A stretch of DNA of 64,000 bases. It comes from Oscillospiraceae bacterium. GTDB taxonomy: Bacteria; Bacillota; Clostridia; Oscillospirales; Ruminococcaceae. Location: positions 16,770 to 80,769 of the forward strand of contig JAGAUA010000011.1 of the NCBI GenBank assembly GCA_017847885.1, in the 5' to 3' direction. Shown here one piece after another: positions 35,091 to 52,950 of the stretch. The notes below the pieces were generated by a model. It did not search any database, was not told the origin of the DNA, and worked only from the letters and a program-made list of their open reading frames with translations. Numbering within the stretch: the stretch's first letter is position 1; every line of letters starts with the position of its first letter. Both the position numbers and the translations under genes were made by a program.

Positions 35091-35864
35091 ATGAAAGCTG
35101 TTATTTTAGCCGGCGGTTTCGGCACGAGGATAAGCGAGGAATCCCACCTGAGACCTAAGCCGATGATCGAGATCGGAGAAATGCCTATACTCTGGCATAT
35201 TATGAAGGAGTACTCCCATTACGGCATCAAAGAATTTATAATCTGCGCAGGCTACAAGCAGCATATTATCAAAGAGTGGTTTGCCAATTATTTTCTGCAT
35301 ACTTCCGATATAACCTTTGATTTTTCCGACAACAACATGATCGTCCACAATAAGCACGCAGAAAACTGGAAGGTCACCATCGTTGACACGGGACTGAAAA
35401 CCCAAACGGGTGGACGTGTTAAAAGGATAAAGGAGCATATCGGCAATGAGTCATTCCTGCTTACATACGGCGACGCCGTGTCTGATATGAACATAGACGA
35501 GCTGATAGATTTTCATAAATCCCACGGCAAGATAGGCACTATATCGCTATATAATTTCGGTCAGAGCAAGGGCGTTGTAGAGGTAAAGGAAAACAAAATC
35601 ACCGCGTTCCGTGAAAAATCCGATTTGGACGGCGACCTTATCAACATCGGCTATATGGTGTTTGAGCCTGCGATATTCGATTATATTTCAGGCGATGAAA
35701 TGCCGCTGGAAACAGAGCCTTTTGCCTCTCTTATAAAGGAAGACCAGCTCTGCGGTTATGTTCACAGAGGCTTCTGGCAGTGTATGGATACGCTAAGAGA
35801 AAAGCAGCGGCTTGAGCAATACTGGGAGTCGGGAGACGCTCCTTGGAAGGTGTGGAACGACTGA
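35091..35864 (+). CDS. rfbF: Glucose-1-phosphate cytidylyltransferase
   Basis: MKAVILAGGFGTRISEESHLRPKPMIEIG, 257 aa, typical of RfbF/DdhA. Confidence 0.92.
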   Translation: MKAVILAGGFGTRISEESHLRPKPMIEIGEMPILWHIMKEYSHYGIKEFIICAGYKQHIIKEWFANYFLHTSDITFDFSDNNMIVHNKHAENWKVTIVDTGLKTQTGGRVKRIKEHIGNESFLLTYGDAVSDMNIDELIDFHKSHGKIGTISLYNFGQSKGVVEVKENKITAFREKSDLDGDLINIGYMVFEPAIFDYISGDEMPLETEPFASLIKEDQLCGYVHRGFWQCMDTLREKQRLEQYWESGDAPWKVWND

Positions 35865-36922
35865 TGGACTTATCGTTTTATAAAGGAAAAAGGGTGCTTG
35901 TCACAGGGCACACAGGCTTTAAGGGCACATGGCTCACAAGAATTCTTGTTAACGCAGGCGCGGAAGTTGCAGGCTATTCAAGATGCTCCGAAAAAGAGCC
36001 TTCTCTGTTTGAAGCGGCAGACGTAAAGGACAGTATCGTACATATCAAAGGCGATGTAAGAGATTTGGAGCATCTGAAAAAGGTGTTTGCCGAATTTCAG
36101 CCTGAGATAGTGCTGCACCTTGCCGCGCAGCCCATAGTGAGGGACAGCTATAAGGACCCGGTGTATACATACGAGACCAACGTTATGGGAACGGTCAATA
36201 TCATGGAGTGCGTAAGGCTTAATCCGTGCGTGAAGTCGGTGCTGAACGTTACTACCGACAAAGTTTACCTGAACAACGAATGGTGCTGGGGGTATCGGGA
36301 GGACGAGCCTCTCGACGGCTTTGACCCGTACTCGAATTCAAAGTCCTGCTCGGAGCTTGTTACCCACAGCTATAAAAACAGCTTTTTTGCAGACGGCAGA
36401 GCCGCGGTATCTACAGCAAGAGCAGGAAATGTTATCGGCGGCGGCGACTTTGCCAATGACAGAATTATCCCCGATTGTGTAAGAGCAATGGCTGACGGAA
36501 GGGTCATCGGCGTAAGAAATCCGTACAGCACCCGTCCCTATCAGCACGTTCTGGAGCCGCTTTTCGTGTACCTTACCATTGCGGCAAAGCAGTATGAATG
36601 CCCCAAATATCAAGGCTATTACAACGTAGGTCCGGACGATTGTGATTGTGTTACAACAGGAGAGCTTGTCAGCCTTTTCTGCAAATGCTGGGGAGAAAAC
36701 GCAAAATGGGAAAATCAAGCGGAAGCCGGCGCTCCCCATGAAGCAAGCTTCCTCAAGCTGGATTGCAGCAAGCTTAAAAGCACCTTTGGCTGGAAGCCCC
36801 GCTGGCACATAGAAAAGTGTATGGATATGGTCTGCCGCTTCAGCAGGATATGGCTTGCAGGCGGAGATATCCCTGAGGAAATGGATAAGGAAATAAGGGA
36901 ATTCGCGGGAAATCAGCCCTGA
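35864..36922 (+). CDS. rfbG: CDP-glucose 4,6-dehydratase
   Basis: KRVLVTGHTGFKGTWL and YSNSK (YxxxK). The ATG overlaps the rfbF stop (TGATG). Confidence 0.92.
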   Translation: MDLSFYKGKRVLVTGHTGFKGTWLTRILVNAGAEVAGYSRCSEKEPSLFEAADVKDSIVHIKGDVRDLEHLKKVFAEFQPEIVLHLAAQPIVRDSYKDPVYTYETNVMGTVNIMECVRLNPCVKSVLNVTTDKVYLNNEWCWGYREDEPLDGFDPYSNSKSCSELVTHSYKNSFFADGRAAVSTARAGNVIGGGDFANDRIIPDCVRAMADGRVIGVRNPYSTRPYQHVLEPLFVYLTIAAKQYECPKYQGYYNVGPDDCDCVTTGELVSLFCKCWGENAKWENQAEAGAPHEASFLKLDCSKLKSTFGWKPRWHIEKCMDMVCRFSRIWLAGGDIPEEMDKEIREFAGNQP

Positions 36923-37049: not shown

Positions 37050-38711
37050 ATGGATCATTTATTCACAAAAGAACAGGACGAGATCACGCTTCAGATATTA
37101 ACTTCTCTTCAAACCGCTTATGAAGCAACCGATATTTTGCTTAATGAAATAAAAAACAATAAAGACTGGTCGCAGTTTGACACGCTGACATCAACGCTAA
37201 ACCAGCTTATTACAGTCATAATGGACGCTTCCGAGCCGTATCACAAGAAATATGACTTTATAACGCTTCCCATTACCTGCCGCTGTATGCTGCATACCTT
37301 GAGTAAAATAATTTCGGCAAGAAGCTCCGATCTGAAAAAATGCTTCGGCAAGCTTGAATTTGAGCTTGTTCCTGCCATTGAAGAGGCTTATCAGCAGTTC
37401 TATTTCTGGACCTGCGTTTATTCCTATCCCGAACGCGAAAAGGAATATTACAATCAAGAAATTTATGAGCTTTCTTCCAACAAATACACCAACGCTTCCG
37501 TAAAAAGCGGTCAATTCAAATATGACCTTTCAATTATGGTTCTGGCGTATAATAAGCTGGAATATACCAAAAAGTGTATAGAACACCTGCTTCCCAATAT
37601 CCCCAAGAATTTGAACTGCGAGCTTATCTTATTCGATAACGGCTCAACCGACGGAACTGCCGAATATTTTGAAAGCTTAAATCCGACAAAACTGTTTCAG
37701 CCTAAAATCAATTGGGGATACGGATTGGCTGTAAACCGAATTATTGAATCGAAATATCTGCTGTATGTGTCAAATGACGTTTTGGTAATGCCCGGCGTTA
37801 TTGAAAATATGCTGGAATGTATAAAATCAGATGACAAAATAGCGCGTATCGTTCCCGCAACAACAAACGTAAGCAACAGACAGGCTGTTATCGAAGGCTT
37901 TAAAAGCTTTGACGACGTTTATGCTTATGCCCGTAAAAACAATGTTCCCGACCCTTTCAGACGGGAAGAAAGAGTCCGCTTGTGTGACCCTATCTCGCTT
38001 ATGGATATGTCGGTGTACGCTTCGGAAAAAGGCATATGCAACTTCGGCTATTATCGGGATAAAGTAATGTCATTCCCCGATGATATGGCGTCATTGATGC
38101 TTAGAAGAAGAGGCTACAAGCAGATACTTCAAAAGGACGCTTTCTGTTATCATTTTGGCTCTATAACGGTAAAAAATGAAATTGACCCTGATTTTTATAC
38201 CCGCGGAAGAAAAATATTCAAAAAAGAATTCGGCGTTGACCCCTGGGGAACAGGCTTTTGCTATGACTCCCCGTTTGAAGAACGGGTCGTAAAGGACGAG
38301 CAGGGTCACGTTGAAGTCCTCGGAATAAACTGCGGTTTCGGCAGCAACTCTCTAAAAATCAAGGAACAGCTCAAAGAGTATTGCAATAATCTTGACTGCA
38401 CACTTTCAAACGTAACCGACGATCCAAGCTTTATTTCCGATTTGAAGGGCATAAGCGATAATGCGCAGCTTGTCACGGATATTAAGTCATTCGAAGAATT
38501 TCTGGATACGCATATGTACAACTATGTGGTTTGGCAGACGCCGTTTATTATTCGAAATGACGCTTCGGCAGTATTCGACCTGCTTCTTTCCCATATCTGC
38601 CCCGGCGGAATTTTATTCGTAAAATCAAATAATTCTTTTTTGGAATATGCAAATAAAAATAACCTTTCTGTATTATCCTTGCCGGAAGAATGGATAAAGC
38701 TGGAGGTTTAA
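37050..38711 (+). CDS. Multidomain family-2 glycosyltransferase (unknown N-terminal ~160 aa, GT2 core, unknown C-terminal ~150 aa)
   Basis: GT2 core LSIMVLAYNKLEYTKKCIEHL...LILFDNGSTDGT. The flanking regions were not recognised. Confidence 0.75.
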   Translation: MDHLFTKEQDEITLQILTSLQTAYEATDILLNEIKNNKDWSQFDTLTSTLNQLITVIMDASEPYHKKYDFITLPITCRCMLHTLSKIISARSSDLKKCFGKLEFELVPAIEEAYQQFYFWTCVYSYPEREKEYYNQEIYELSSNKYTNASVKSGQFKYDLSIMVLAYNKLEYTKKCIEHLLPNIPKNLNCELILFDNGSTDGTAEYFESLNPTKLFQPKINWGYGLAVNRIIESKYLLYVSNDVLVMPGVIENMLECIKSDDKIARIVPATTNVSNRQAVIEGFKSFDDVYAYARKNNVPDPFRREERVRLCDPISLMDMSVYASEKGICNFGYYRDKVMSFPDDMASLMLRRRGYKQILQKDAFCYHFGSITVKNEIDPDFYTRGRKIFKKEFGVDPWGTGFCYDSPFEERVVKDEQGHVEVLGINCGFGSNSLKIKEQLKEYCNNLDCTLSNVTDDPSFISDLKGISDNAQLVTDIKSFEEFLDTHMYNYVVWQTPFIIRNDASAVFDLLLSHICPGGILFVKSNNSFLEYANKNNLSVLSLPEEWIKLEV

Positions 38712-38893: not shown

Positions 38894-40237
38894 ATGAGTA
38901 ATTGGACAAGCGAAGCCGAAGCACGTCAACAGATAAAAGCTATGGTAGCAGAATATTACCATGATTTTATGGAAAAAAAAGACGCATTTAAACCCGGCGA
39001 CCGCATAAGCTATGCTTCACGGGTATTCGATGAAAAGGAAATGTGCAGCCTGACAGATGCCGTTTTGGATTTCTGGCTGACAACAGGCAGGTTTTCCGAC
39101 GAATTTGAACGCAATTTTGCCGAGTGGATAGGCGTGAAATATGCACATCTTGTCAACAGCGGCTCTTCCGCAAACCTTATTGCGTTTTCCGTTCTGACCG
39201 CTCCCGAGCTTGGCGAGCGGCAGATAAAGCGCGGCGATGAGGTCATCACCGTTGCCGGCGGCTTTCCCACTACCGTTACGCCGATACTTCAGTATGGCGC
39301 AATACCCGTATTTGTTGACGTGACTGTTCCACAGTACAACATTGATGTTACAAAGCTTGAAGCCGCTTTGAGCGATAAGACAAAGGCGGTCATGATAGCG
39401 CACACCTTGGGTAATCCCTTTGACCTGTCTGCGGTAAAGGCCTTCTGCGATAAGCATGGTTTATGGCTTGTGGAGGATAACTGCGACGCCCTCGGCACGG
39501 AGTACACCATTGACGGAGTAACCAAATTCACAGGCACATGGGGCGATATCGGAACAAGCAGCTTCTATCCGCCCCACCATATGACAATGGGAGAAGGCGG
39601 CTGCGTTTATACCAATGACCCGATGCTTCATCGCCTTATACTCTCCTACCGCGACTGGGGTCGGGACTGCATCTGCCCGTCGGGACGGGATAATTTTTGC
39701 GGACGCCGTTTTGACGGACAATACGGCGAGCTGCCCCGCGGATACGACCACAAATATGTTTACAGCCATTTCGGATATAACCTCAAAGTTACCGACCTGC
39801 AAGCCGCTGTTGGCGTGGAGCAGCTGAAAAAGTTCCCGTCCTTTATTGAGCGGCGCCGCCATAACTGGGACAGGCTGCGAAATGCGCTGAAATGTGTTCG
39901 GGATAAAATTATCTTGCCCGAGCCTGCGGAAAACAGCAGACCCTCATGGTTCGGCTTTCTCATTTCCGTGAAGCCCGAAACGGGTCTTGACAGAAATAAC
40001 GTTACCCGTTATATTGAGGAGCATAATATCCAAACAAGGCTTTTATTCAGCGGCAATCTTATCAAGCACCCCTGCTTTGACCATATCCGCGGCACCGACG
40101 CATACCGCGTGGTCGGAGAGCTTTCCAACACCGATTTCATCATGAATAACAGCTTTTGGGTGGGTGTGTATCCCGGCATGAGCGATGAGATGATAGATCA
40201 TATGGCAAAGATTATCATAGAAGCTGTGAATAAGTAA
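38894..40237 (+). CDS. rfbH: CDP-6-deoxy-D-xylo-4-hexulose 3-dehydrase (E1, RfbH/DdhC type; DegT fold)
   Basis: 447 aa DegT/DnrJ-like protein. It has SFYPPHHMTMGEGG, with His at the position of the usual PLP lysine. It is adjacent to rfbF and rfbG. Confidence 0.85.
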   Translation: MSNWTSEAEARQQIKAMVAEYYHDFMEKKDAFKPGDRISYASRVFDEKEMCSLTDAVLDFWLTTGRFSDEFERNFAEWIGVKYAHLVNSGSSANLIAFSVLTAPELGERQIKRGDEVITVAGGFPTTVTPILQYGAIPVFVDVTVPQYNIDVTKLEAALSDKTKAVMIAHTLGNPFDLSAVKAFCDKHGLWLVEDNCDALGTEYTIDGVTKFTGTWGDIGTSSFYPPHHMTMGEGGCVYTNDPMLHRLILSYRDWGRDCICPSGRDNFCGRRFDGQYGELPRGYDHKYVYSHFGYNLKVTDLQAAVGVEQLKKFPSFIERRRHNWDRLRNALKCVRDKIILPEPAENSRPSWFGFLISVKPETGLDRNNVTRYIEEHNIQTRLLFSGNLIKHPCFDHIRGTDAYRVVGELSNTDFIMNNSFWVGVYPGMSDEMIDHMAKIIIEAVNK

Positions 40238-40345: not shown

Positions 40346-40484
40346 GTTTGAAAATAAATTTTCAAACCCGAATTTTGTTTTCCTTGCTGCTGCAAGGGAT
40401 TTGCTTAGCCGGCTTTGTCAGTTTCAAACCGCAAAACATCGGAAAGGAGTGCATTTTCCCTTTGGGGAAATGGTCATAAAAATG
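40346..40484 (+). repeat. Repeated ~137-nt leader, copy 1 (5' UTR of first FkbM gene)
   Basis: About 90 percent identical by eye to 46561-46696. The 3' 62 nt have only 3 differences. Confidence 0.9.
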
Positions 40485-41621
40485 ATTGACAATGAATTAT
40501 TAATGTTTTTGCAAACAGTTCCAAATGAAACAGACTTATTTGTAAAACAGCTTAAAGCCGAACAAGATAATAAGAAAATATATTTATATGGCTGCGGTAA
40601 TCACGTCAGATTTGTTGCTGATTATTTAAAATACCATGATATTAAGATAACGGCTATACTGGATACATTTAAAGAAGGCATTTTTTCCGGGATCCCTGTT
40701 ATTCGTTATTCCGATTTTCTTGCTGAAAAACCCGATCCGGAAAAATGTATAATTATTATTTCTGCTCCGGCAAAAGCAAAGGAAATTTCAGATAATCTAA
40801 AGAGATCCGGCAATTGGAACTTTTGGCTGTTTTCTTCAGTATTAGGCATATTTATGAGCGATCTTGACGAATACAGAAACTATCTTGCCCAAAACTGGGA
40901 TGAATTTATTAAATTTTCCAATTCATTGGAAGACGATTTGTCGCGAAAAACTCTTGAGTGTGTTCTAAAAGGCAAGGTCTCGGGAGATCCAAAATATTTT
41001 GCGGAATGTTATGCCCCGAATCAATATTATCCAAATGATATTATTAAATTTTCCGACAATGAAGTTATGGTAGATCTGGGAGCTTATGATGGAGATTCAC
41101 TGTCAGAATTCATTAAAGTTTGTCCCGAATATAGATCTGCTTATTGCTTTGAACCCCAGGAAGAATATTTCAATAAACTAAACACGATTGTCAAGAAACA
41201 GCAAAAATTAGGGAAAAATGTCCATGCAATAATGAAAGGAGCATGGGAGAAAAGCTGCAAACTCCAATTTAGGCAAAATACCGGAATAGGCGGAAGCTTT
41301 TCACAAGATCCTTGTGATGAAAATGCGGAAAATATATGCTTTCTTGATGTAGCATCTGTTGATGAAGAAGTTAAAGAGCCGATCACATATATGAAAATGG
41401 ATATTGAGGGCTCTGAGCTTGCTGCACTTCACGGTGCAAAACGACAGATTTCTGAGAATAAACCTAAGCTGGCAGTCTGTGTATACCACAAAACAGAGGA
41501 TTTTCTTGATATATGGAATTATTTGCGAAGCCTTGTTCCGGAATATAAATTTTATTTGCGTCACCATATGAAAACTGAAGTATCAGAAACAGTATTGTAT
41601 GCCATTACCGATATAAAATAA
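40482..41621 (+). CDS. FkbM-family methyltransferase with NeuD-like N-terminal Rossmann region (paralog 1)
   Basis: 379 aa, colinear with paralog 2. I chose the start by alignment with paralog 2 (MIDNELLMFLQTVPNE vs MLNNELLEFLKSVPNE). The C-terminal half is FkbM-like (VDLGAYDGDS...MDIEGSE). Confidence 0.8.
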   Translation: MIDNELLMFLQTVPNETDLFVKQLKAEQDNKKIYLYGCGNHVRFVADYLKYHDIKITAILDTFKEGIFSGIPVIRYSDFLAEKPDPEKCIIIISAPAKAKEISDNLKRSGNWNFWLFSSVLGIFMSDLDEYRNYLAQNWDEFIKFSNSLEDDLSRKTLECVLKGKVSGDPKYFAECYAPNQYYPNDIIKFSDNEVMVDLGAYDGDSLSEFIKVCPEYRSAYCFEPQEEYFNKLNTIVKKQQKLGKNVHAIMKGAWEKSCKLQFRQNTGIGGSFSQDPCDENAENICFLDVASVDEEVKEPITYMKMDIEGSELAALHGAKRQISENKPKLAVCVYHKTEDFLDIWNYLRSLVPEYKFYLRHHMKTEVSETVLYAITDIK

Positions 41622-41639
41622 AAGAAAAGAGGAATAAAA

Positions 41640-42779
41640 ATGTTAAATAATGAATTATTGGAATTTTTAAAATCAGTTCCAAATGAAACGAAATTATTTG
41701 TAGAAAAGCTTAAAGCTGAACAAGGAGATAAAAAAATATACTTATTCGGCTGCGGCAATCATGTCAGAGTGGTTGTTGACTTTCTAAGACGTCGGAATTT
41801 TGATATAACTGCGATTATAGACACCTTCAAAGAAGGAGAGCTTTCCGGAATCCCTGTTATTCGTTATTCCGATTTCCTCGCTGAAAAACCCGATCCGGAA
41901 AAATGTATAATTATTATTTCTGCTCCGTCAAAAGCAAAGGAAATTACAGATACTTTAAGGAAATCCAATGATTGGAACATTAAAACATTTACAGTTGGAT
42001 TGAACGCCTTTATTGATGATATTGATGAATACAGAAACTATCTCGCCCAAAACTGGAATGAGCTTATTGAATTTGCTGATTCATTGGAAGATGATTTTTC
42101 GCGAAAAACTCTTGAATGTGTTCTAAAAGGCAGGGTCTCGGGAGATCCAAAATACTTTGCGGAATGTTATGCTGCCAATCAATATTATCCAAATGATATT
42201 ATTAAATTTTCCGATAATGAAGTTATGGTGGATCTTGGAGCTTATGATGGAGATTCACTTTCGGAATTCATTAAAGTTTGTCCCGAATATAGATCTGCTT
42301 ATTGCTTTGAACCACAGGAAGAATATTTCAATAAATTAAACGCGATCGTCATGGAACAACAAAAATTAGGGAAAGGCACCCATGCAATAATGAAAGGAGC
42401 ATGGGAGAAAAGCTGCAAGCTGAAATTTATACAAAACATGGGAACCGGCGGAAGCTTTTTACAAGATTCTTGTGATGCAAATGCGGAAAATATATGCTTT
42501 CTTGATGTAGCAGCTGTTGATGAAGAAGTTAAAGAGCCGATCACATATATGAAAATGGATATTGAGGGCTCTGAGCTTGCTGCACTTCATGGTGCAAAAC
42601 ATCAGATTTCTGAGAACAAACCTAAGCTGGCAATTTCCGTATATCATAAAATTGAAGATTTTCTCGACATTTGGAATTATTTGCGCAGTCTTGTTCCTGA
42701 ATATAAGTTTTATCTGCGTCATCATGTGGAGTATGAGATGCCGGATACGGTTTTGTACGCTGTTGCTGATACAAAATAA
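41640..42779 (+). CDS. FkbM-family methyltransferase (paralog 2, tandem duplicate)
   Basis: About 80 percent amino-acid identity to paralog 1 by eye, with long identical nucleotide runs. Confidence 0.85.
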   Translation: MLNNELLEFLKSVPNETKLFVEKLKAEQGDKKIYLFGCGNHVRVVVDFLRRRNFDITAIIDTFKEGELSGIPVIRYSDFLAEKPDPEKCIIIISAPSKAKEITDTLRKSNDWNIKTFTVGLNAFIDDIDEYRNYLAQNWNELIEFADSLEDDFSRKTLECVLKGRVSGDPKYFAECYAANQYYPNDIIKFSDNEVMVDLGAYDGDSLSEFIKVCPEYRSAYCFEPQEEYFNKLNAIVMEQQKLGKGTHAIMKGAWEKSCKLKFIQNMGTGGSFLQDSCDANAENICFLDVAAVDEEVKEPITYMKMDIEGSELAALHGAKHQISENKPKLAISVYHKIEDFLDIWNYLRSLVPEYKFYLRHHVEYEMPDTVLYAVADTK

Positions 42780-42863: not shown

Positions 42864-43544
42864 ATGGAGATTATTATGCAAATGAGTTTGACAAAGGACG
42901 ATCTGATCAGATATGTTGGGAGACAGTTGGAAATGTTCTTTCCGGATGGAATGAAATTTGATATAAGTCAGCATATCTCGTCATACAATCTTGCACTTGA
43001 ACGGCTGGAGTATTGTCTTGATTCAATTTGTGTCAAAGGATATCATGATGAAAAAGGCAATGTGACATTCTCCCATCTGCACGCTGATCAGTATGCAACG
43101 TTCATATGGTTCTTCAGCAATTCGGTCTGGAGGCTTGAGGAGAATGATTTTTTGAGCAGTAAGCTTCTTCAGCTGAACAGGTTATTGCATCAGATATTTA
43201 TTTCATACAAATGTGATATGCCGGATCACTTTTTTTTAGGGCATCCTATAGGAACTGTTTTAGGTAATGCAAAGTATGGGGATTTCTTAGCAGTTCTTCA
43301 AGGTGTTACCGTAAACACCAATAATGATTTGAAGATAGGAAAAGGTGTTTTCTTGGGAGCAAATTCGAAAATAATCGGAAGCAAACCAATCGGAGACAGA
43401 GCTTCTGTTGCAGTAGGTACACTACTATTTGAAACCTCTGTCCCGGACAATCATGTTGCAATGAATATAGATGGAAAAACCATTATACGCAAAAGGAAAA
43501 GGGAAAAATGTGTGGCTCAGAGATATTTTAACATAGATATTTAA
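42864..43544 (+). CDS. Left-handed beta-helix (hexapeptide) acyltransferase, serine-acetyltransferase-like
   Basis: GHPIGTVLGNAKYGDFLAVLQGVTVNTNNDLKIGKGVFLGANSKIIG. An alternative start at 42876 follows GGAGA. Confidence 0.75.
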   Translation: MEIIMQMSLTKDDLIRYVGRQLEMFFPDGMKFDISQHISSYNLALERLEYCLDSICVKGYHDEKGNVTFSHLHADQYATFIWFFSNSVWRLEENDFLSSKLLQLNRLLHQIFISYKCDMPDHFFLGHPIGTVLGNAKYGDFLAVLQGVTVNTNNDLKIGKGVFLGANSKIIGSKPIGDRASVAVGTLLFETSVPDNHVAMNIDGKTIIRKRKREKCVAQRYFNIDI

Positions 43545-43668: not shown

Positions 43669-45471
43669 ATGAAAATACGTGTTGCTGATTATATTGCTCA
43701 ATTTTTTGTTGAAAACGGAATAACTCAATTGTTTTCAGTTGTTGGCGGAGGAGCCATGCATCTGAATAATGCATTTGGTCTGGAAAAAAGGCTCAATGTT
43801 ACATACAACCATCACGAACAGGCATCGGCTATTGCAGCTGAAAGCTACAGCCGTGTGAACAACAAGGTTGCGGCAGTATGCGTTACAAGCGGACCGGGCG
43901 GTACAAATGCCCTTACAGGCGTTCTGTGTGCATGGCAGGATAATCTGCCGATGATCGTCGTTTCGGGACAGGTTCGTTATGATATAACTGTAGACAGCAC
44001 CGGTTTGAATCTGCGTCAGTTCGGTGAGCAGGAATATTATATCATACGCTCTGTTTCACCTATGACCAAGTATGCAGTAATGATAACAGATGCCAAAACA
44101 ATAAAGTATCATCTTTCAAAGGCTCTGCATCTTGCTACTACAGGTCGCCGCGGGCCGGTATGGATAGATGTGCCGCTGAATATACAGGGACAGGAAATTG
44201 ATACTGATGATTTGATAGAATATGTGCCTGAATCAGATTTCGGGGCATATAAAGCTGATATAGATAACATTGTACGTGAGATCTCATCTGCAAACCGTCC
44301 GGTTTTCATTGCCGGTTCCGGACTGCGCACCTCCGGCGCACTTGAAAAGTTCAGAGAACTTGCCGAAAAGCTGAATATACCTGTAGTTTGCCCAACAAGC
44401 ACTGTGGATTACTTTACCCCGTCAGAAAAAAAATACTTTGGAATGTTCGGTACATTCGGCGGCAGAACCGGTAATTTTATAGTTCAAAATGCTGACCTGC
44501 TTATTTCACTTGGTGCAAGATTGTCATTCAAACAGATAGGTTTTAATTTTGAACATTTTTCACCCCAATCACGCAGAATAGTAGTTGATGCAGATGCGGA
44601 AGAACTGAAAAAGCCTACGATCCGTATAGATATTCCAATATGCGCTGATGTTGCAGACGTTGTGTCAGCATTGCTGGAACGTGATATTGAAACAAAGACG
44701 GAAGAAAAAATGCAGTGGATGGAATATTGCAGATTTTTGAAAAACAGGTTTGCTACTTCTGCTGATACTGAAAGAAAATCAATAAGTGCATATCGTTTTT
44801 CAGAGGTGTTTTTTGAAAAGGCAGACGAAAATGCTGTCTGTGTATTGGGAAACAATACCGCGGCGGTTTCTCTTCTCCAGTGCGGAATAAAGAAAAAAGG
44901 ACAAAGAATGTACGGCAATGTAAACTGCGGTACAATGGGATACGACCTGCCGGCTGCTATCGGTGCGGCATTTGCTTCCGGAAAGACTGTGTTCTGTCTT
45001 ACCGGCGAGGGTACTTTGCAGATGAATTTGCAGGAACTTCAGACAGTGGTGCATAACAACCTGCCGGTTAAGATAGTTGTATTTAACAATAATTCCTATC
45101 AGGCAATAGTTGCAACTCAGAAGAACTTTTTCAACGGCGTTTTTTGCGGAGCCACAAATGATTCGGGAATAAGCTTCCCTTCATTCAAAAAGCTTGCTGA
45201 CTGCTATGATTTCCCGTTTAAATCTATAAGCAGGTCTGATGAGCTTGAAGCGGCAGTTGACTGGCTTTTAAATATTGAAGGACGTGCAATTTTAGAGCTT
45301 GTTCAGACTGAGCCTGACCCGATCATGCCTAAGCTTTCAAGTAAAAAGCTTAATGACGGCAGCATTGTGTCACCGCCTATTGATGACCTGTTCCCGTTTT
45401 TATCAGAAGAAGAATATGAAAAGTGCCGATACATAAATTTTGTTAAGGCAAATACAGAAACAGTATTATAA
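43669..45471 (+). CDS. Thiamine-diphosphate enzyme of the acetolactate-synthase superfamily (YerE-like candidate)
   Basis: N-terminal Pyr domain (HEQASAIAAESYSR, TSGPGGTNA) and C-terminal PP domain (GTMGYDLPAAIGAA...GEGTLQMNLQEL...NN). Confidence 0.85.
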   Translation: MKIRVADYIAQFFVENGITQLFSVVGGGAMHLNNAFGLEKRLNVTYNHHEQASAIAAESYSRVNNKVAAVCVTSGPGGTNALTGVLCAWQDNLPMIVVSGQVRYDITVDSTGLNLRQFGEQEYYIIRSVSPMTKYAVMITDAKTIKYHLSKALHLATTGRRGPVWIDVPLNIQGQEIDTDDLIEYVPESDFGAYKADIDNIVREISSANRPVFIAGSGLRTSGALEKFRELAEKLNIPVVCPTSTVDYFTPSEKKYFGMFGTFGGRTGNFIVQNADLLISLGARLSFKQIGFNFEHFSPQSRRIVVDADAEELKKPTIRIDIPICADVADVVSALLERDIETKTEEKMQWMEYCRFLKNRFATSADTERKSISAYRFSEVFFEKADENAVCVLGNNTAAVSLLQCGIKKKGQRMYGNVNCGTMGYDLPAAIGAAFASGKTVFCLTGEGTLQMNLQELQTVVHNNLPVKIVVFNNNSYQAIVATQKNFFNGVFCGATNDSGISFPSFKKLADCYDFPFKSISRSDELEAAVDWLLNIEGRAILELVQTEPDPIMPKLSSKKLNDGSIVSPPIDDLFPFLSEEEYEKCRYINFVKANTETVL

Positions 45472-45570
45472 ACGTAATCTGAATAAGATAAACCATATAG
45501 ATAATTAAAGAAATGATGTGTTGCAGTTTTGAAAACATTTAATATTGAAAATATTGCCGTAGGAAAAGAA

Positions 45571-46566
45571 ATGCTTGTTATCCCGGAAATCGGTATAAAT
45601 CACGGCGGCAGCCTTGAGGTCGCAAAGCTTATGATCGATGCTGCTGCAAATGCAGGTGCAAAAATAGTTAAGCACCAGACCCATATTGTAGATGACGAGA
45701 TGTCCCATGCGGCAAAACACGTAATTCCGGGTAATTCTAAAAAATCAATATATGATGTTATGGAGGAATGTGCGCTTTCAGAAAGCGAAGAGCTTGAGAT
45801 GATGCGCTATGCTGAAAGCAGGGGACTCGTATTCATGAGTACGCCCTTTTCAAGAGCAGCAGCGGACAGACTTGAAAAATTCGGAGTGTCCGCCTATAAA
45901 ATCGGTTCGGGGGAAATGAATAATTATCCGCTTATTGAGCATATTGCTGACTTCGGCAAACCGATGATCGTTTCCACCGGCATGAATGATATCAAATCAA
46001 TCGAAAAAACGGTAAATATACTTGAACGAAAAAATGTGAAATACGCACTTCTGCATACTACCAACATTTACCCCACAAAACCTGAACAGGTAAGACTTGG
46101 AGCAATGCTTGAAATGGCAGAAGCATTTCCCGATGTACCGTTCGGACTTTCAGACCATACGCTTAACAACAATTCATGTATAGCCGCTGCCGCTTTGGGT
46201 GCAACAATATTTGAACGTCATTTTACTGACAGCAAAAGCAGAGAAGGAAATGACATTGTATGCTCTATGGACGGGCATGAGCTTTCAGAGCTTATAAAAG
46301 CAGTCAATGAAGTTAAGCTGATGCGCGGCGGTGAAAAGAGTGCCCTTGCCGATGAACAGGTCACAATAGATTTTGCTTTCGCAACAGTAGTTTCGATCAA
46401 GCCGGTCGCAAAGGGCGACGTGTTCAGCAAAGAAAATATATGGGTAAAAAGACCGGGAACAGGCGAAATTCCGGCTGTGGATTATCCTAAAATACTTGGG
46501 AAAAAAGCAGCCTGCAATATTCCGTCAGATACACATATAACTCTTGATATGGTGGAAGAAGTTTGA
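45571..46566 (+). CDS. neuB: N-acetylneuraminate (nonulosonate) synthase family protein with C-terminal SAF domain
   Basis: [14 protein letters not shown]...KHQTH...KIGSGE. The ORF track offers an upstream TTG at 45529. The ATG at 45571 matches usual NeuB N-termini. Confidence 0.85.
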
Positions 46567-46696
46567 AAAAAATTCAAACCCGAGTTTTGTTTTCCTCGCT
46601 GCCGCAAGGAATTTTCTTAGCTGACTTTGTCAGTTTAAAACCGCAAAACATCGGAAAGGAGTGCATTTCCCCTTTGGGAAAATGGTCATAAAAATG
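46561..46696 (+). repeat. Repeated ~137-nt leader, copy 2 (between neuB-like and neuC-like genes)
   Basis: It starts on the neuB stop codon (GTTTGA) and ends at the neuC ATG. See copy 1. Confidence 0.9.
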
Positions 46697-47869
46697 AGTG
46701 ATTTGAAGATAGTTTTTCTAACAGGCACCCGTGCTGACTATGGCAAGCTGAAACCTCTTATGCTGGCATGTGAGAAAGATAAACATATTGATCTCAGTGT
46801 TTATGTTACAGGTATGCATTTATTTGAGAAATATGGAAGTACATATCACGATATCGTATCGGACGGATATTCAGATATACATATAGCCGAAGATTATGTC
46901 ATGACAGAAAATATGGATATAGATCTTGCAAATACTATTATTGGCTTTTCAAAATATATAAAGAAAATTAAACCTGATATGATAGTTGTCCACGGTGACA
47001 GGATAGAGCCTCTCGCAGGTGCTATTGTAGGGGTTCTGAATAATATCAAGGTCGTACATATAGAGGGCGGAGAAGTTACCGGTACTGCTGATGAATTTAT
47101 GAGGCACGCTATTTCAAAGCTCAGCAGTATGCATTTTGTATCCAATGATGAAGCAAAATTTCGCCTTATCCAGCTTGGTGAGCGTGAAAGTTCAATAGTT
47201 GTATTCGGTTCACCGGATATAGATATTATGCTTTCCGATAATCTGCCTGACTTGAATGATGTCAAGAAAATGTATAACATATACCATGATAAATACGCTA
47301 TTTTCAGTTATCACCCTGTTACAACTTCGGATAATCTGGAATTTGAGATCAATCAGGTTATTGAAGCTTTGAAAAAATCCGATAAAAATTACATTGTAAT
47401 TTATCCAAATAACGACACAGGTTCTGAAATAATATGCAAAGCCCTGGACAGCCTTGGTGATGACAGAAGATTTATATGCTATAAGTCGATCCCCTTTGAG
47501 AATTTCATAGTTTTGTTGAAAAACGCAGATTTTATTATCGGAAATTCAAGCGCAGGAGTTCGTGAGGCGTGTGTTTACGGAGTTCCTGCAATAGATATCG
47601 GTAAAAGACAAAACGGCAGATATAATTTGAAGATCATGAGAAATATTCAGTATGCAGATGAATGCTGTCCGGAAATTCTCAAGTGTATTTCCAATGTTGA
47701 CAATCATAGGTTTATATCATATTACTATGGCAATGGACATTCAGCAGAAATATTTTTGAAAACCATAAAAAGCAGAAATTTCAGAAAAATGGATATTCAA
47801 AAAACTTTTGTAGACTCATCAGAAACACATAAAGCAATAATAAATTATATTAATGAGGTGAGTTTTTGA
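46694..47869 (+). CDS. neuC: UDP-N-acetylglucosamine 2-epimerase (hydrolysing), NeuC type
   Basis: KIVFLTGTRADYGKLKPLM and HIEGGEVTGTADEFMRHAISKL. I chose the start at MSDLKIV. Confidence 0.85.
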   Translation: MSDLKIVFLTGTRADYGKLKPLMLACEKDKHIDLSVYVTGMHLFEKYGSTYHDIVSDGYSDIHIAEDYVMTENMDIDLANTIIGFSKYIKKIKPDMIVVHGDRIEPLAGAIVGVLNNIKVVHIEGGEVTGTADEFMRHAISKLSSMHFVSNDEAKFRLIQLGERESSIVVFGSPDIDIMLSDNLPDLNDVKKMYNIYHDKYAIFSYHPVTTSDNLEFEINQVIEALKKSDKNYIVIYPNNDTGSEIICKALDSLGDDRRFICYKSIPFENFIVLLKNADFIIGNSSAGVREACVYGVPAIDIGKRQNGRYNLKIMRNIQYADECCPEILKCISNVDNHRFISYYYGNGHSAEIFLKTIKSRNFRKMDIQKTFVDSSETHKAIINYINEVSF

Positions 47870-48714
47870 TGAATGTAATTGTTACCGGCGGTACCGGATT
47901 TCTTGGGAATGCGCTTGTATCTGAGCTGATACGCAGCGGAGATACGGTGACCGCACTCGTTCGCCCGAATTCGGTAAGACTAAGCAGAATTGAAAAAATT
48001 CCGGGAGTAAAAATTGTTGAAGCAAGGCTTGATGAAGATATCATACTACCCAAAGATAATTATGATGTTTTTTATCATCTGGCATGGGAAGGAGAAAGAG
48101 ACAATTACAACTCACAGTATAAAAATGTAAAAATGACTTTGAATTGTCTTAATGCTTCCGCAAAATATGGGTGCAAGAGGTTTATTTGTACAGGTTCACA
48201 GGCGGAATATGGTGAAACCGATCATGTCATAACCGAGGAAACACCTGTTGCTCCGACTACATCATACGGGGCTGCAAAAGCAGCTGCATATTATTTGTCA
48301 AAGGATCTGGCAAGGCATTATAATATTGAGCATATATGGGTAAGGGTATTCAGCGTTTATGGCGAAAATGACAATGCCAATACGTTGTATACACAGTTAT
48401 CCGAAGCATTGCACAACTCAAAAAAATACAGTCTTTCCACAGACGGAAAACATATGTGGAATTTTCTGCACGAAACAGATGCAGCACGCGCACTTCGTCT
48501 GCTTTATGCTCCTGATGTCAGTGAGGGAGTCTATAATTTGGCTTCAAAGTACAGCAGACCATTGTGTGAATATGTTGACCTGATGAGGCAAAGTATTGAC
48601 CCGTCTGCGGAAATATCATTCGGAAATCAAAAAAGTAAAATTAATCTAAACGCATCGACAGTCAAGCTTCGCAAAGCTGTTGGAGAGTTTGAAGAAAAGA
48701 CATTTCCAGTATAA
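47866..48714 (+). CDS. Short NAD(P)-dependent SDR epimerase/reductase (CDP-paratose/abequose-synthase-like or YerF-like)
   Basis: VTGGTGFLGNAL and YGAAK (YxxxK), 282 aa. It overlaps the neuC stop by 4 nt. Confidence 0.75.
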   Translation: MMNVIVTGGTGFLGNALVSELIRSGDTVTALVRPNSVRLSRIEKIPGVKIVEARLDEDIILPKDNYDVFYHLAWEGERDNYNSQYKNVKMTLNCLNASAKYGCKRFICTGSQAEYGETDHVITEETPVAPTTSYGAAKAAAYYLSKDLARHYNIEHIWVRVFSVYGENDNANTLYTQLSEALHNSKKYSLSTDGKHMWNFLHETDAARALRLLYAPDVSEGVYNLASKYSRPLCEYVDLMRQSIDPSAEISFGNQKSKINLNASTVKLRKAVGEFEEKTFPV

Positions 48715-48865: not shown

Positions 48866-50950
48866 TTATTTACGGTTATGCAGTTTATATTTCAAAATTC
48901 CTATTTCGGGATCAGCCGGACAAATCTTTTCAAGCTCAAGCAGCGTGCTTTCCGCAGTGGAAATATCCCCCGCGTCGATCATGCTGCGAATATTTTTCTT
49001 TACCGCAGCAGCCATTTCCGCAAGCTCTGAACGGACGCTTTTCTTCTGCACAGCCTCACTTTCGATAACCTTGCGGTACTCCGAAACAAACGGTGCAAAA
49101 TCGGGGCAAACCTTTATCAGCCTGCGCATTTCGCTGATACAGGTCTGATAATCCTTTCTTTCCCGTGCTTCGGTTATGCCGTGAACGATAATTCCCGCAC
49201 GAATATCCCCCGGGATATTTTCCTCATTGGGGAATTCGCTCTGCCATCTTGCAGCGATCTTACCGAACATTTCAAAAAGCTTTGTAATATCCTTACCAGA
49301 ATTAAGCGCTTCCACCATTGCCCAGCCGTATAAAGACGCGGCGTTCACAAGCGCGTCCGACGAAAGCATACAGATGTCATACTCATCAAGCAGGCAGGCA
49401 TACTCCGAAAAATCAGCGTATAATTCATGCACGAAGCTGCCGGCTTTAAAGTCGTCCGCCGTTAAAAAGCAGGATATATCCATGCTGCATTTTAACATCA
49501 TGCAGAGTATATCTGTATTGCCGAATGCTCCGTATTTTTTCGTAAAACTCTCGGCCTGCTCATATTGAAGAACATTGTCAATGAAGTATCCGCGATAAAT
49601 TTCAACTGCATCGTCAACGCAGGGAACATACTCCGAAAATTCCGACATGACGCTTAACAGCTCTTCGGGCTTGTCCGAAGAAAACATTTTGCCGCGAAGA
49701 ACTTGGAAAAACAGCTTTCTGTTGTTATCGTCAAGAGTGCTTACAAGCTTCTTTATGCTTTTCCAGCCGATATGCTCCATGATCTCGGCTCTGTCGCGGA
49801 AATGTACAAGCATATAATCCTTGTCGTCAAGATACTTTTCTATAGGGAATGCCTTCAAATATTCCGCGGCGGTGTTATATTTCTGCGTCATCACGCAAGA
49901 TTTAAAAAACATAAAATAAATATTTTTTAAATTTCTGTCACCTACTTTTACCGCAGAATAAAGCAGGTCATCAGTATTAAGCTTTCCGCTTTTGTAGGAT
50001 TTGTACACCTTGAAAAACTGTAGAAAATCATAAATTGCCTTATTAAACTGCTCAGTACGGAAATATGCTTCTCCGCGCATTGCATACATATTAACATCAT
50101 TTGCAAGTACCTGCGTATGGGACGGATTATCGCTTCCAAAATAATTATTGCAGGTCTCGATAACTCCAGGATAATCATTATAGCATGAAATTAAAAGGCT
50201 TGCCTTATTATTGTAATACTGAGTTATGGCAATAATGCTATGGTCAAGGTTATCCAAACCCATGTTTATGTATTTAAGTGCTTTTTCATGGTTATTAATT
50301 ATATTATAGCAGTCTGAAATTTCTCTGTAAGCGTTGAAATCAACGTCTTGATTTTCAAGGCTCTTAAACAGCATTTCAAGATTTCTTTTGCTTTTTACAT
50401 ACGCTTGTTCGGTCACTTCGCCGTTATTGCTATAAAAATATCCGTAATGATCTGCAACAGTACTAAATTTTTTAACAGGACTATGTACCGGACATAACGC
50501 CTCATGAATTGCATTTACAAAACAAACAGCAGAGTATCTATTGGTAAGCCGAAGCGCATTTGAATCTGTATATCTGCTTAAATCGACTTCATCAAAATAA
50601 GAGCGCACTATATAAGAGGCACTTCCGTATGACTTATACTCTCCCGAATTAAAAAAGCTTATTATCTCATCGCAGGACTGAAAAACTTCATCGGCGTCAA
50701 GAAACATATACCATTCTCCGACGGATTTTTCCATAGTAAAATTACGTGCAGCCGAAAAGTCGTCTATCCATTCAAAGTAATAAACCTTGTCGGTAAATTT
50801 CTTTGCTATCTCAACGGTATTATCCGTTGAACCCGTATCGGCAATAATAAGCTCGCTGTCCACCTTTTCAAGAATAGGCTTTAATGCGGTAAGGCACTTT
50901 TCAAGATACTTTTCCTCATTTTTAACTATCATTCCGATTGACAAAAGCAT
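48866..50950 (-). CDS. GT2 glycosyltransferase fused to a long TPR-like helical domain (candidate flagellin glycosyltransferase)
   Basis: LSIGMIVKNEEKYLEKCL...ADTGSTDNT...DADE. I chose the start at 50950, preceded by GGGAGGA with a 7-nt spacer. It lies directly downstream of a flagellin gene. Confidence 0.8.
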   Translation of the reverse strand: MLLSIGMIVKNEEKYLEKCLTALKPILEKVDSELIIADTGSTDNTVEIAKKFTDKVYYFEWIDDFSAARNFTMEKSVGEWYMFLDADEVFQSCDEIISFFNSGEYKSYGSASYIVRSYFDEVDLSRYTDSNALRLTNRYSAVCFVNAIHEALCPVHSPVKKFSTVADHYGYFYSNNGEVTEQAYVKSKRNLEMLFKSLENQDVDFNAYREISDCYNIINNHEKALKYINMGLDNLDHSIIAITQYYNNKASLLISCYNDYPGVIETCNNYFGSDNPSHTQVLANDVNMYAMRGEAYFRTEQFNKAIYDFLQFFKVYKSYKSGKLNTDDLLYSAVKVGDRNLKNIYFMFFKSCVMTQKYNTAAEYLKAFPIEKYLDDKDYMLVHFRDRAEIMEHIGWKSIKKLVSTLDDNNRKLFFQVLRGKMFSSDKPEELLSVMSEFSEYVPCVDDAVEIYRGYFIDNVLQYEQAESFTKKYGAFGNTDILCMMLKCSMDISCFLTADDFKAGSFVHELYADFSEYACLLDEYDICMLSSDALVNAASLYGWAMVEALNSGKDITKLFEMFGKIAARWQSEFPNEENIPGDIRAGIIVHGITEARERKDYQTCISEMRRLIKVCPDFAPFVSEYRKVIESEAVQKKSVRSELAEMAAAVKKNIRSMIDAGDISTAESTLLELEKICPADPEIGILKYKLHNRK

Positions 50951-51035
50951 ATCTATATCCTCCCAAAATAAAATCTTATAATTGATATCATTTTTAAATT
51001 TCAAATTTTTTGCCGCTTAAAAATAACATCAATTA

Positions 51036-51106: not shown

Positions 51107-52924
51107 TTACTGGAGGAGTGAGAGAACGCCCTGAGGCAGCTGGTTTGCCTGAGCAAGCATAGACTGAGATGCCTGGCTGAGGATCTGCTGCTTTGTGAAG
51201 TTCATCATCTCTTCTGCCATGTTTGTATCACGGATACGAGACTCAGCAGAAGTAAGGTTCTCAGTTGTAACGTTGAGGTTGTCGATCTTGTGTTCGAGAC
51301 GGTTCTGAACAGCACCGAAGGAACCTCTTACCATGGAAACCTTGTTGATAGCGTTGTCGATCTTGTCGATAGCAGCGTTAGCAGACTCCTGAGTTGTGAG
51401 AGAAAGCTTATCTGTACCGAGACCTCTTGCGGAGCAGTCGAGGTCAGCCTTAAGATCGCCAAGGCCGTTAGAAGTATACTCGAATGAGAAGTTTACGCTG
51501 TCCTTAGTTCTTGCGCCAACCTGAAGTGTGAGGTTGTCAGCATAAGTAAGGGGAGCTGAAGCTGCATTGTTGGAGTTGGATCTTGAAACGTTACCTGTCT
51601 TAGCAACTTCGATTGAAGGTGCAGCAGCTGCGTCATACTTGGACTTTTCAATACCGATCTTGTAAGAAATATTACCTACAGAAGTATCAGTATCTGTAGC
51701 AGCCTTAGCAGTAATTGTTCCAATTGTTACACTGCTTGTTTCATCCTTAATTGTAAGAACACCTGCATCTGTTGTAGTGAAAGAGAATTCAGAATTGCCG
51801 ATCTTAATTTTTGTACCAGCGGTATTACCTGTAATAGCAGTTCCATCTTTAAGGGTGAGCTTGAAATCGCCAGCCTTAGATGCTGTTTTGTTCTTATAAG
51901 CAGCATCAAACTGTGCTCCGTCAAGAAGATCCATAAGCTTGTCAATATCTTCTGTCATTTTAGCATCTGTAAGACCTGTGTCAAGTTTAACCTTAACATC
52001 AGCATCTTTAAGCTTGATCGAACCCTCTGTGAAGTTTGTGCTGTCGGAAACTGTTGCACCTGCGTTTGTGGGAGCAGAAATACCGTTTGCAGGATTGTTA
52101 AATGTAAGAGTGATCGTATCGCCATTGCCGAGCTTAGTCTGGTCAACAACTACGTTAGCAACTGTTACGGAATTGATCTCAACAGCGAAACCGCCGTTTG
52201 CAGTTTTAGCGCAAGTAATGCTACCTGTGCTTGCACCGTTTGTTGCACCGGTTGCAGACCAAGTACCATCAGCCTGGTTAAACTTAAAGGTGATGTCAAC
52301 AGAGTCAGGACCGTTTGTTGCAGGCTTACCAGCTTCTCTTGTCCACTGACCGTTAAGTACCTTCCAAGCAACGCTTGCTGTAGTACCGTTATCCCAAGCC
52401 TGAGCGTCGAGTACGTTTACATCGCCCTTGCCAAGCTTTGTAGCAGCCTTTGTGCCGTTCTCGTAGTCGAACTTGCCGTTGATAGCCTTTGTGCCGTCAG
52501 CCATCTGACCACCGTTAAGAGCAACAACACCGTTGAAGTCTGTGTCAGCGATCTGGTTGAGCTCGTCGTTCAGCTGGTTGAATTCGAGCTGGATAGCTTC
52601 ACGGTCAACGTCGTCCTGGTAAGAACCGTTAGCAGACTGAGCAGCAAGAGTCTTCATTCTCTGGAGAATGGAGTCTGTCTCTGTGAGAGCACCCTCATAT
52701 GTCTGAACCATGGAGATACCGTCCTGAGCGTTCTTTACAGCCTGTGTAAGACCGCCGATCTGAGATCTCATCTTTTCGGAAACTGCGAGACCTGCAGCGT
52801 TATCGCCTGCACGGTTGATTGCGTAACCGGAAGAAAGCTTTTCGAGAGATTTGGAAAGCTTGTTGTTGTTGATACCAAAGTATCTGTTAGCGTTTATCGC
52901 TGTTAAGTTGTGCTGTACTACCAT
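51107..52924 (-). CDS. fliC: Flagellin (paralog A, 605 aa, large Ser/Thr-rich variable middle)
   Basis: MVVQHNLTAINANR...LSSGYAINRAGDNAAGLAVSEKMR N-terminus and ...MLAQANQLPQGVLSLLQ C-terminus. Confidence 0.97.
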   Translation of the reverse strand: MVVQHNLTAINANRYFGINNNKLSKSLEKLSSGYAINRAGDNAAGLAVSEKMRSQIGGLTQAVKNAQDGISMVQTYEGALTETDSILQRMKTLAAQSANGSYQDDVDREAIQLEFNQLNDELNQIADTDFNGVVALNGGQMADGTKAINGKFDYENGTKAATKLGKGDVNVLDAQAWDNGTTASVAWKVLNGQWTREAGKPATNGPDSVDITFKFNQADGTWSATGATNGASTGSITCAKTANGGFAVEINSVTVANVVVDQTKLGNGDTITLTFNNPANGISAPTNAGATVSDSTNFTEGSIKLKDADVKVKLDTGLTDAKMTEDIDKLMDLLDGAQFDAAYKNKTASKAGDFKLTLKDGTAITGNTAGTKIKIGNSEFSFTTTDAGVLTIKDETSSVTIGTITAKAATDTDTSVGNISYKIGIEKSKYDAAAAPSIEVAKTGNVSRSNSNNAASAPLTYADNLTLQVGARTKDSVNFSFEYTSNGLGDLKADLDCSARGLGTDKLSLTTQESANAAIDKIDNAINKVSMVRGSFGAVQNRLEHKIDNLNVTTENLTSAESRIRDTNMAEEMMNFTKQQILSQASQSMLAQANQLPQGVLSLLQ

Positions 52925-52950
52925 AAATGTTACCTCCTGTAAATTTGGTT

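Follow-up and report, generated by a model that had tools for sequence, protein, structure and literature searches.

A gene at positions 43669-45471 of the window, by which we mean the whole 64,000-nucleotide stretch analysed here (positions 16,770 to 80,769 of contig JAGAUA010000011.1 from an Oscillospiraceae bacterium, assembly GCA_017847885.1, a genome estimated to be 99.5% complete), encodes a 600-residue thiamine diphosphate (ThDP) enzyme within a flagellar glycosylation island. Sequence comparison places this enzyme in the JanthE/ErwE-type family of long-chain-donor sugar-branching lyases, sister to and distinct from YerE proper, and the gene very probably encodes not an acetolactate synthase but a sugar-branching ThDP carboligase. 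For the locus as a whole, we lean towards a reading in which the enzyme grafts a keto acid derived from the neighbouring NeuB onto a CDP-dideoxy sugar destined for flagellin.

Two groups of characterized systems frame this reading. In the YerE/YerF system of Yersinia pseudotuberculosis O:VI, which yields yersiniose A, and in PpYerE, a ThDP-dependent carboligation takes place at the C-4 ketone of CDP-3,6-dideoxy-4-keto-glucose and ddh genes are adjacent, a plan that the window appears to share. The 'unifying scheme for acyl-branched sugars', comprising an aldolase, a ThDP enzyme and a reductase, was formulated for erwiniose, caryophyllose, and gastriose (Steitz et al. 2022, PMC9306805). In each of the corresponding systems, that is, ErwE of Pectobacterium atrosepticum (erwiniose), MMAR_2332 (caryophyllose), and MyGE (gastriose), a 4-hydroxy-2-keto acid is produced by an enzyme dedicated to it, the ThDP enzyme joins it, with loss of CO2, to CDP-4-keto-3,6-dideoxyglucose, and a reductase acts thereafter; we infer the same order of events here. 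Family membership matters for the donor because YerE prefers pyruvate (PMC9306805, PMC12247030), pyruvate is no donor for ErwE, whose substrates are 4-hydroxy-2-keto acids (PMC9306805), and the donors of JanthE and MyGE are long (PMC9306805, PMC12247030). Lyases of the JanthE/ErwE type take long 2-keto acids hydroxylated at the gamma position.

Comparisons with profile models and solved structures separated the enzyme from acetohydroxyacid synthase (AHAS). Its score lies under the cut-off of every AHAS model (TIGR00118, 315 bits with the cut-off at 538), and other contigs of the same genome encode two genuine AHAS large subunits, which score 720 and 669 bits. Its neighbours are glycan genes, and no small-subunit, ilvC or ilvD gene adjoins it. 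Among solved structures the best match was JanthE of Janthinobacterium sp. HH01 (8rph, with 8rpi and 8rpj; 370 bits over residues 2-586), from which the fold was taken, followed by PpYerE (5ahk, 234 bits) and E. coli IlvB (213 bits). The enzyme is 42-47% identical to members of its family, which is large: an exhaustive representative search yielded more than 150 clusters at 50% identity with at least 350 bits, and close homologues with at least 55% identity fall into more than 120 clusters. Krug et al. are said to have assembled, in 2024, over 200 enzymes of YerE-like type by cluster similarity.

A maximum-likelihood tree (careful IQ-TREE run, 53 rows and 594 columns; a quick run and FastTree versions agree) was built with reference proxies defined by similarity to PDB entries and by gene context. 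The JanthE proxy is a Methylotenera protein (L091; 759 bits to 8rph, CDG motif). For the other two, 401 genomes of the enterobacterial family, centred on a Symbiopectobacterium locus, were searched with RfbH, which gave 11 ddhC loci, three of them with a ThDP gene next to ddhC. One of these (L120) is a YerE-proper proxy with the order ddhD-A-B-C, ThDP gene, Epimerase-type short-chain dehydrogenase/reductase (SDR) and family 2 glycosyltransferase (GT2), and its ThDP protein scores 871 bits against PpYerE 5ahk; a second locus (L116) is of the same type. The third (L119), an ErwE-type proxy, carries ddhD-A-B-C, an HpcH aldolase, the ThDP gene, an SDR, an acetaldehyde dehydrogenase, and a DmpG-type aldolase, a gene order that matches the architecture of the published ErwE-F-J-I erwiniose cluster (PMC9306805). 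The split between Gcl, IlvB, IlvI and the two AHAS of the genome on one side and the YerE proxies plus the family of the window enzyme on the other is supported at 100/100, and that between AHAS plus YerE proper and the JanthE/ErwE family, including L091 and L119, at 100/98. The YerE proxies are the sister group of the JanthE/ErwE family on the non-AHAS side; by score they are closer to AHAS (272 bits) than to JanthE (238 bits).

These results bear on the first-pass annotation of the window, which had proposed a YerE-type branching enzyme and had offered clustering with bona fide acetolactate synthases as evidence to the contrary. No such clustering was found, and the notion of a branching ThDP carboligase stands. 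The YerE label does not hold in the strict sense, since the enzyme scores far better against 8rph than against 5ahk and lies across the 100/98 split in a lineage of its own; YerE, moreover, is without the C-terminal extension described below. JanthE-like rows, for their part, form a clade separate from the NeuB-linked one to which the window enzyme belongs.

The catalytic Glu50 of the window enzyme is invariant. Its Mg-ThDP motif, of the general form GDG-X(24-27)-NN, reads G-E-G (residues 446-448, positions 45004-45012) instead of GDG, with the G-E-G...NN stretch spanning residues 446-475, and CDG, as in JanthE, and SDG variants likewise occur in the family. The idea that GEG marks a dead enzyme was considered and dropped, as a third of the close homologues have this variant, other clades have it too, and Glu is able to ligate Mg. 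A C-terminal motif, DGSIVSPPIDDLFP at residues 563-576 (family consensus DG[ST]x[VI]SPPxDD[LM]xP), corresponds to the DG..VSPP..DL.P segment of JanthE; together with K555, the counterpart of the JanthE hot-spot K567 in the active-site cleft, it is conserved in the family and absent from AHAS. The aromatic hot-spots Y268 and Y297 of JanthE also have aromatic counterparts, F263 and F292, while V121 is replaced by E120 and P293 by K288. By analogy with JanthE, a 'YerE-like' lyase whose figure legend lists ThDP, FAD, and Mg (PMC12188165), the enzyme probably contains FAD. Within the NeuB-linked clade the pocket signature E120, K288, F292, and V481 is nearly fixed, and the aldolase-linked sister clades have D, R, Y, and R at these positions; this fits a different substrate without proving one.

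The gene neighbourhood points to the nature of the donor. The window enzyme lies in a clade of nine rows supported at 100/100, and in all nine loci NeuB and NeuC adjoin the ThDP gene. Besides the window, these loci come from a strain recorded as Clostridium botulinum B2 433, Paenibacillus polymyxa, a Ruminococcaceae metagenome-assembled genome (MAG), Desulfitobacterium, Smithella, a Bacteroides MAG, a Clostridiales MAG, and a contig labelled "Caulobacteraceae". Five of the nine are adjacent to flagellin genes and the Smithella locus is not, so the module is a unit that does not depend on flagella. In the sister clades, keto-acid-forming aldolases stand at the position of NeuB/NeuC, often with a haloacid dehalogenase (HAD) family phosphatase; they are HMGL-like in Lachnospiraceae A4 and Selenomonas artemidis and of the HpcH/HpaI type in Campylobacter concisus and an Oscillospiraceae MAG. 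In a survey of 80 family loci (L020-L099) from many phyla, aldolases occur in 28 and NeuB-family genes in 22, never together in one locus (hypergeometric P of about 1e-5 on the assumption of independence, which does not hold for kin). Nine NeuB-like neighbours in other clades were tested, and each is a member of PF03102, some with a cupin fusion.

Two further features of these neighbourhoods were observed. NeuB-SAF-cupin fusions of about 500 residues lie next to the ThDP gene in Chromobacterium (L076:8496-9983) and Methylophilus (L093:8439-9959). HAD-family phosphatases stand beside the aldolases next to the ThDP genes in L048, L022, and L040, which hints that the keto-acid donors in these clades derive from phosphorylated aldehydes.

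The NeuC and NeuB of the window resemble the enzymes of the canonical NeuC-NeuB-NeuA pathway, with NeuC above its equivalog cut-off and NeuB very close to the Neisseria meningitidis enzyme, but the pair sits in a CDP-sugar/ThDP module and its usual partner is missing. No CMP-nonulosonate synthetase (NeuA) was found in the genome, where the sole PF02348 match is GlmU; none was seen in the homologous islands, and two further Gram-positive genomes with the module gave no convincing match. The island has no Maf-type or sialyltransferase-type gene, its only transferases being two GT2 enzymes, and RfbF is its sole sugar nucleotidyltransferase. N-Acetylneuraminate (Neu5Ac) is itself a 3-deoxy-4-hydroxy-2-keto acid, that is, a member of the donor class of ErwE. 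Because NeuB and NeuC are linked to the ThDP gene in nine of nine loci, NeuB and aldolases exclude each other, NeuA is lacking, RfbF is the only nucleotidyltransferase, and the transferases are all GT2, the most economical reading, and one we hold to be slightly more probable than its contrary, is that the ThDP enzyme would take its acyl donor from NeuB, whose product would not be a sugar donor. NeuB/NeuC would then be the candidate keto-acid supplier that acyl-branched sugar clusters carry next to the ThDP gene. In contrast to the ErwE-type systems, this supplier is a phosphoenolpyruvate (PEP)-dependent NeuB with NeuC and not a pyruvate aldolase, and the predicted branch has eight carbons and is N-acetylated. 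The pyruvate-derived, yersiniose-like branch suggested by the first-pass annotation is therefore probably incorrect with respect to the donor, and a long-branched sugar is likely. Its alternative suggestion, an acyl substituent for the nonulosonate, is turned around: it is more likely that the nonulosonate forms the branch on the dideoxyhexose than that it receives an acyl group.

On the acceptor side, 45 of the 80 family loci have an RfbH homologue with at least 40% identity no more than 10 kb from the ThDP gene, many of the remaining contigs being short. The tie between the ThDP enzyme and CDP-3,6-dideoxyhexose genes, which had been noted for the window only, is thus a general one. The window encodes equivalents of DdhA, DdhB, and DdhC above their cut-offs; in RfbH (DdhC, E1) the [2Fe-2S] cysteines C197, C259, C261, and C269 and the HH pair at 228-229 align with enterobacterial DdhC, and the active-site His in place of the pyridoxal phosphate lysine is retained. 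The equivalent of the reductase DdhD (E3) was found neither in the island nor in the genome, and in the survey an E3 homologue was present in only 3 of the 80 loci (missing in 77) and a YerF/ErwF-type reductase in only one. In this family the absence of E3 is the norm, and the enterobacterial ddhD/yerF arrangement is the exception. A general cellular reductase can work with E1 homologues such as SpnQ, and one may do so here.

The genes of the island, together with the domain or model assignments on which they rest, are as follows.

35091..35864, + strand: RfbF/DdhA, glucose-1-phosphate cytidylyltransferase (TIGR02623, 371 bits, cut-off 300).
35843..36922, + strand: RfbG/DdhB, CDP-glucose 4,6-dehydratase (TIGR02622, 427 bits, cut-off 278).
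37050..38711, + strand: GT2 glycosyltransferase, 553 residues (PF00535).
38894..40237, + strand: RfbH/DdhC (E1), pyridoxamine phosphate/[2Fe-2S] CDP-4-keto-6-deoxyglucose 3-dehydrase (NF011936, 710 bits, cut-off 423).
40401..41621, + strand: PglD_N plus FkbM methyltransferase, copy 1 (PF17836 and PF05050), a tandem paralogue of copy 2 with a probable role in methylation of the nucleotide-sugar.
41640..42779, + strand: PglD_N plus FkbM methyltransferase, copy 2 (PF17836 and PF05050).
42864..43544, + strand: left-handed beta-helix O-acetyltransferase, EpsC/CysE-like (NF041874, E 7.9e-13, under the cut-off).
43669..45471, + strand: JanthE/ErwE-type ThDP carboligase, 600 residues (PF02776, PF00205, and PF02775, i.e. 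TPP_enzyme_N, _M, and _C).
45529..46566, + strand: NeuB, N-acetylneuraminate-synthase-type (N. meningitidis NeuB 1xuu, 411 bits; TIGR03569, 381 bits, below the cut-off of 400).
46661..47869, + strand: NeuC, hydrolysing UDP-GlcNAc 2-epimerase (TIGR03568, 385 bits, cut-off 236).
47866..48714, + strand: extended SDR of the Epimerase family, 282 residues (PF01370), its start overlapping the NeuC stop.
48866..51004, - strand: GT2 with a long helical-repeat tail (PF00535), directly downstream of flagellin A and likely a flagellin glycosyltransferase.
51107..52924, - strand: flagellin A, 605 residues (PF00669 and PF00700), a probable glycan acceptor.
53322..55229, + strand: flagellin B, 635 residues (PF00669 and PF00700), likewise a probable glycan acceptor.

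The genes from RfbF to the SDR run in the same direction; beyond them follow the convergent GT2 with its helical-repeat tail and the two flagellin genes (48866-55229), and upstream the island is bounded by mgtE and a division/cell-wall cluster. The curated equivalog cut-offs are exceeded by RfbF, RfbG, RfbH, and NeuC. The ThDP open reading frame (ORF) is preceded by a GGAGA Shine-Dalgarno sequence 6 nt 5' of its ATG and is a real gene within a conserved gene set, not a chance ORF; that it shares an island with rfbF, rfbG, rfbH, and a short SDR, as first described, was borne out by the Pfam and NCBIfam matches of the ORF and its neighbours. Several of the other genes recur in related islands. 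Homologues of the 553-residue GT2 with 37-49% identity are found in islands of C. botulinum, Paenibacillus, Ruminococcaceae, and Desulfitobacterium (L005, L006, L008, and L016), GT2-TPR proteins occupy the position equivalent to that of the GT2 at 48866..51004 in L005, L006, L015, and L016, and the Paenibacillus island holds a homologue of the O-acetyltransferase with 43% identity. Among 24 genomes of the same genus, members of the ThDP family are present in three, each 47% identical to the window enzyme, and none has a close orthologue. The flagellar glycosylation island is highly variable among members of the genus, and probably mobile.

Some additional observations concern the structure of the island and its relatives. 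The PglD_N-FkbM pair (40401-42779) is a recent tandem duplication, in which 300-nt blocks spaced 1158 nt apart share 80-91% identity. Direct repeats of 134 nt, 90% identical and 6212 nt apart (40356-40489 and 46568-46701), lie just upstream of the first FkbM gene and just upstream of NeuC, with the five genes from FkbM to NeuB between them, and may represent a shared leader or the trace of a cassette insertion. A 614-residue ORF directly downstream of flagellin B (55396-57240) gave no Pfam or NCBIfam match. The Ruminococcaceae (L008/L009) and Desulfitobacterium (L016) islands contain radical-SAM/SPASM enzymes, together with an aldo-keto reductase that has a ferredoxin-like domain; these may provide additional tailoring or pass electrons to E1.

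The SDR at 47866-48714 had been suggested for the role of YerF. It travels with the ThDP/NeuB/NeuC unit and not with RfbH, and SDRs immediately beside the ThDP genes of other Firmicutes loci share 33-37% identity with it. Solved structures gave only distant matches, the best at 67 bits. By sequence it is not a YerF/ErwF orthologue, and so the proposed role could be kept only as that of a functional analogue: we propose the SDR as a reductase of the branch carbonyl, standing in for the YerF-type reductase which, like DdhD, is present in YerE clusters and was not found here. The ErwE-type systems differ from the window in the same two respects.

From these elements a route can be drawn up in which the donor, the acceptor, the order of the steps, the role of the SDR, and the flagellin target are all read from sequence. 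RfbF, RfbG, and RfbH, with another electron donor replacing E3, would make CDP-4-keto-3,6-dideoxy-D-glucose. NeuC would convert UDP-GlcNAc to N-acetylmannosamine (ManNAc), which NeuB would condense with PEP to N-acetylneuraminate. Spared CMP activation, the sialic acid would be decarboxylated by the ThDP enzyme to an eight-carbon acyl-anion equivalent, and its addition to the C-4 ketone of the CDP-sugar would create a tertiary alcohol with a long carbon branch. The 282-residue SDR would then reduce the new branch carbonyl, the FkbM methyltransferases and the acetyltransferase would decorate the branched product, and the two GT2 enzymes would move the CDP-activated sugar onto flagellin. Flagellin is a likely target in view of the genomic context, and in this respect the window, with its Gram-positive flagellin glycosylation, would differ from the ErwE-type systems, which serve lipopolysaccharide (LPS) or lipooligosaccharide (LOS). 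The predicted product has a 14-carbon skeleton, is N-acetylated and branched at C-4, and would be found on the flagella of Clostridia, Paenibacillus, and others; the glycosidic residue should have a mass of 395.179 Da, with 14.016 Da more per methyl and 42.011 Da more per acetyl group. More tentatively, NeuB may be used independently of CMP in a general way, such that Neu5Ac or a close nonulosonate, less CO2, is joined to CDP-4-keto-3,6-dideoxyglucose and NeuB-family enzymes form a second widespread class of keto-acid suppliers, interchangeable with the pyruvate aldolases.

Several points weigh against this scheme. The Mg-binding Asp of the GDG motif is replaced by Glu in the window enzyme, a variant that recurs in 37 of the 119 close homologues and in several other clades. 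E3 (DdhD/AscD) was found in neither the island nor the genome, whose sole NAD_binding_1 protein is a subunit of the hydrogenase/sulfite-reductase type. The SDR matches ErwF-like and YerF-like proteins in BLASTP only at E values of 0.26 and 0.004, respectively, while these two are 44% identical to each other; it is weakly related (25% identity, E 1e-11) to an SDR of about 287 residues that follows ddhC in enterobacterial clusters lacking a ThDP gene. These enterobacterial SDRs are probably paratose/abequose synthases, and the SDR of the window could accordingly act as a C-4 ketoreductase in competition with branching. Most Neu5Ac in solution has the pyranose form, and the ThDP enzyme requires the open-chain keto form. 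The tree relies on proxies in place of the published YpYerE, ErwE, MMAR_2332, and MyGE sequences, and functional assignments across the NeuB-linked clade are drawn from comparative genomics and sequence.

The best-surviving alternative is a yersiniose-type route, in which a two-carbon unit from pyruvate would be added to CDP-4-keto-3,6-dideoxyglucose and followed by the action of the SDR, with the nonulosonate of NeuB/NeuC being separate and handled by other enzymes. The ddh-type genes and the adjacent SDR agree with it, pyruvate is among the donors that JanthE, the closest solved relative, can use (PMC12188165), and a large Firmicutes sister clade carries RfbFGH, the ThDP gene and an SDR without an aldolase or NeuB (for example, L021 and L035), so that some family members probably use a common metabolite such as pyruvate. 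We nevertheless consider this route unlikely for the window, where the linkage of NeuB and NeuC to the ThDP gene in all nine loci of the clade, the mutual exclusion of NeuB and aldolases across the family, and the position of the enzyme outside the YerE proper lineage all speak for another donor, and where a separate nonulosonate would find neither a NeuA in the genome nor a Maf-type or sialyltransferase-type gene beside the two GT2 genes of the island.

Less probable still is that the ThDP enzyme tailors the nonulosonate apart from the CDP-sugar, as an Sfm-like modification or an acyl substituent, with the SDR acting as a C-4 reductase of the paratose/abequose type and two sugars being placed on flagellin. 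The flagellin-modification operon of Shewanella oneidensis does include a ThDP-binding protein (PMC3765264), and the SDR resembles the enterobacterial SDRs next to ddhC slightly more than it resembles YerF. On the other hand, no CMP-synthetase was found that would activate the nonulosonate, the family tracks RfbH (in the 45 loci mentioned above) and not nonulosonate pathways, and the SDR goes with the ThDP gene instead of RfbH. Finally, an AHAS or other ThDP enzyme of central metabolism lying in the island by chance is barely credible and already contradicted, for although the top NCBIfam matches are AHAS models and homologues are publicly annotated as 'acetolactate synthase', the model scores far below the cut-offs, the two genuine AHAS genes elsewhere, the lack of a small-subunit, ilvC or ilvD neighbour, the 100/100 separation in the tree, and a glycan-gene context that is kept across phyla all disagree.

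Returning to the preferred reading, the transfer of a NeuB-derived branch to a CDP-dideoxy sugar, a parallel from flagella is the sfmABCDE operon of S. oneidensis, in which a thiamine-dependent enzyme also occurs in a flagellin-glycan operon with methylated glycan parts (Bubendorfer et al. 2013, PMC3765264). The flagellin glycan there, a 274-Da unit plus a nitrogen-free methylated moiety of 264 Da, is chemically unsolved (PMC3765264). The Shewanella operon works beside a complete pathway of the pseudaminic acid type, with no CDP-dideoxyhexose genes noted.

In the literature, a 2025 review refers to more than 200 predicted YerE-like enzymes and is silent on sialic acid, PEP, flagella, and Gram-positives (PMC12247030), and a search for work linking YerE and NeuB found nothing relevant. 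None of these genes comes up in a 2009 paper on the C. botulinum flagellar island. From genomes, 3,6-dideoxyhexoses have been predicted for Clostridium flagellins in a 2026 survey, which also lists, uninterpreted, an 'acetolactate synthase' beside a 'citrate lyase family protein' in the flagellar island of C. butyricum DSM 10702 (PMC13317340). The first-pass annotation had regarded a branched 3,6-dideoxyhexose as unprecedented on a Gram-positive flagellin; the dideoxyhexose part of this claim is preceded by that survey, and as for the branched part, we found no published structural report of a branched sugar on flagellin in the literature searched.

If our reading is correct, the island would make a large carbon-branched sugar not yet described chemically, and a higher-carbon, C-branched amino sugar of this sort would be a new kind of bacterial sugar. 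NeuB would gain a role in feeding a carbon-carbon ligase instead of CMP-activation. This would explain the 'orphan' NeuB/NeuC pairs without NeuA and the 'acetolactate synthase' genes in flagellar and surface-glycan islands, which occur in gut Clostridia, in Paenibacillus, and in the strain recorded as Clostridium botulinum. ThDP enzymes of this kind are wanted to produce chiral tertiary alcohols, and a clade that accepts large polyhydroxylated, N-acetylated donors would widen the biocatalysis toolbox.

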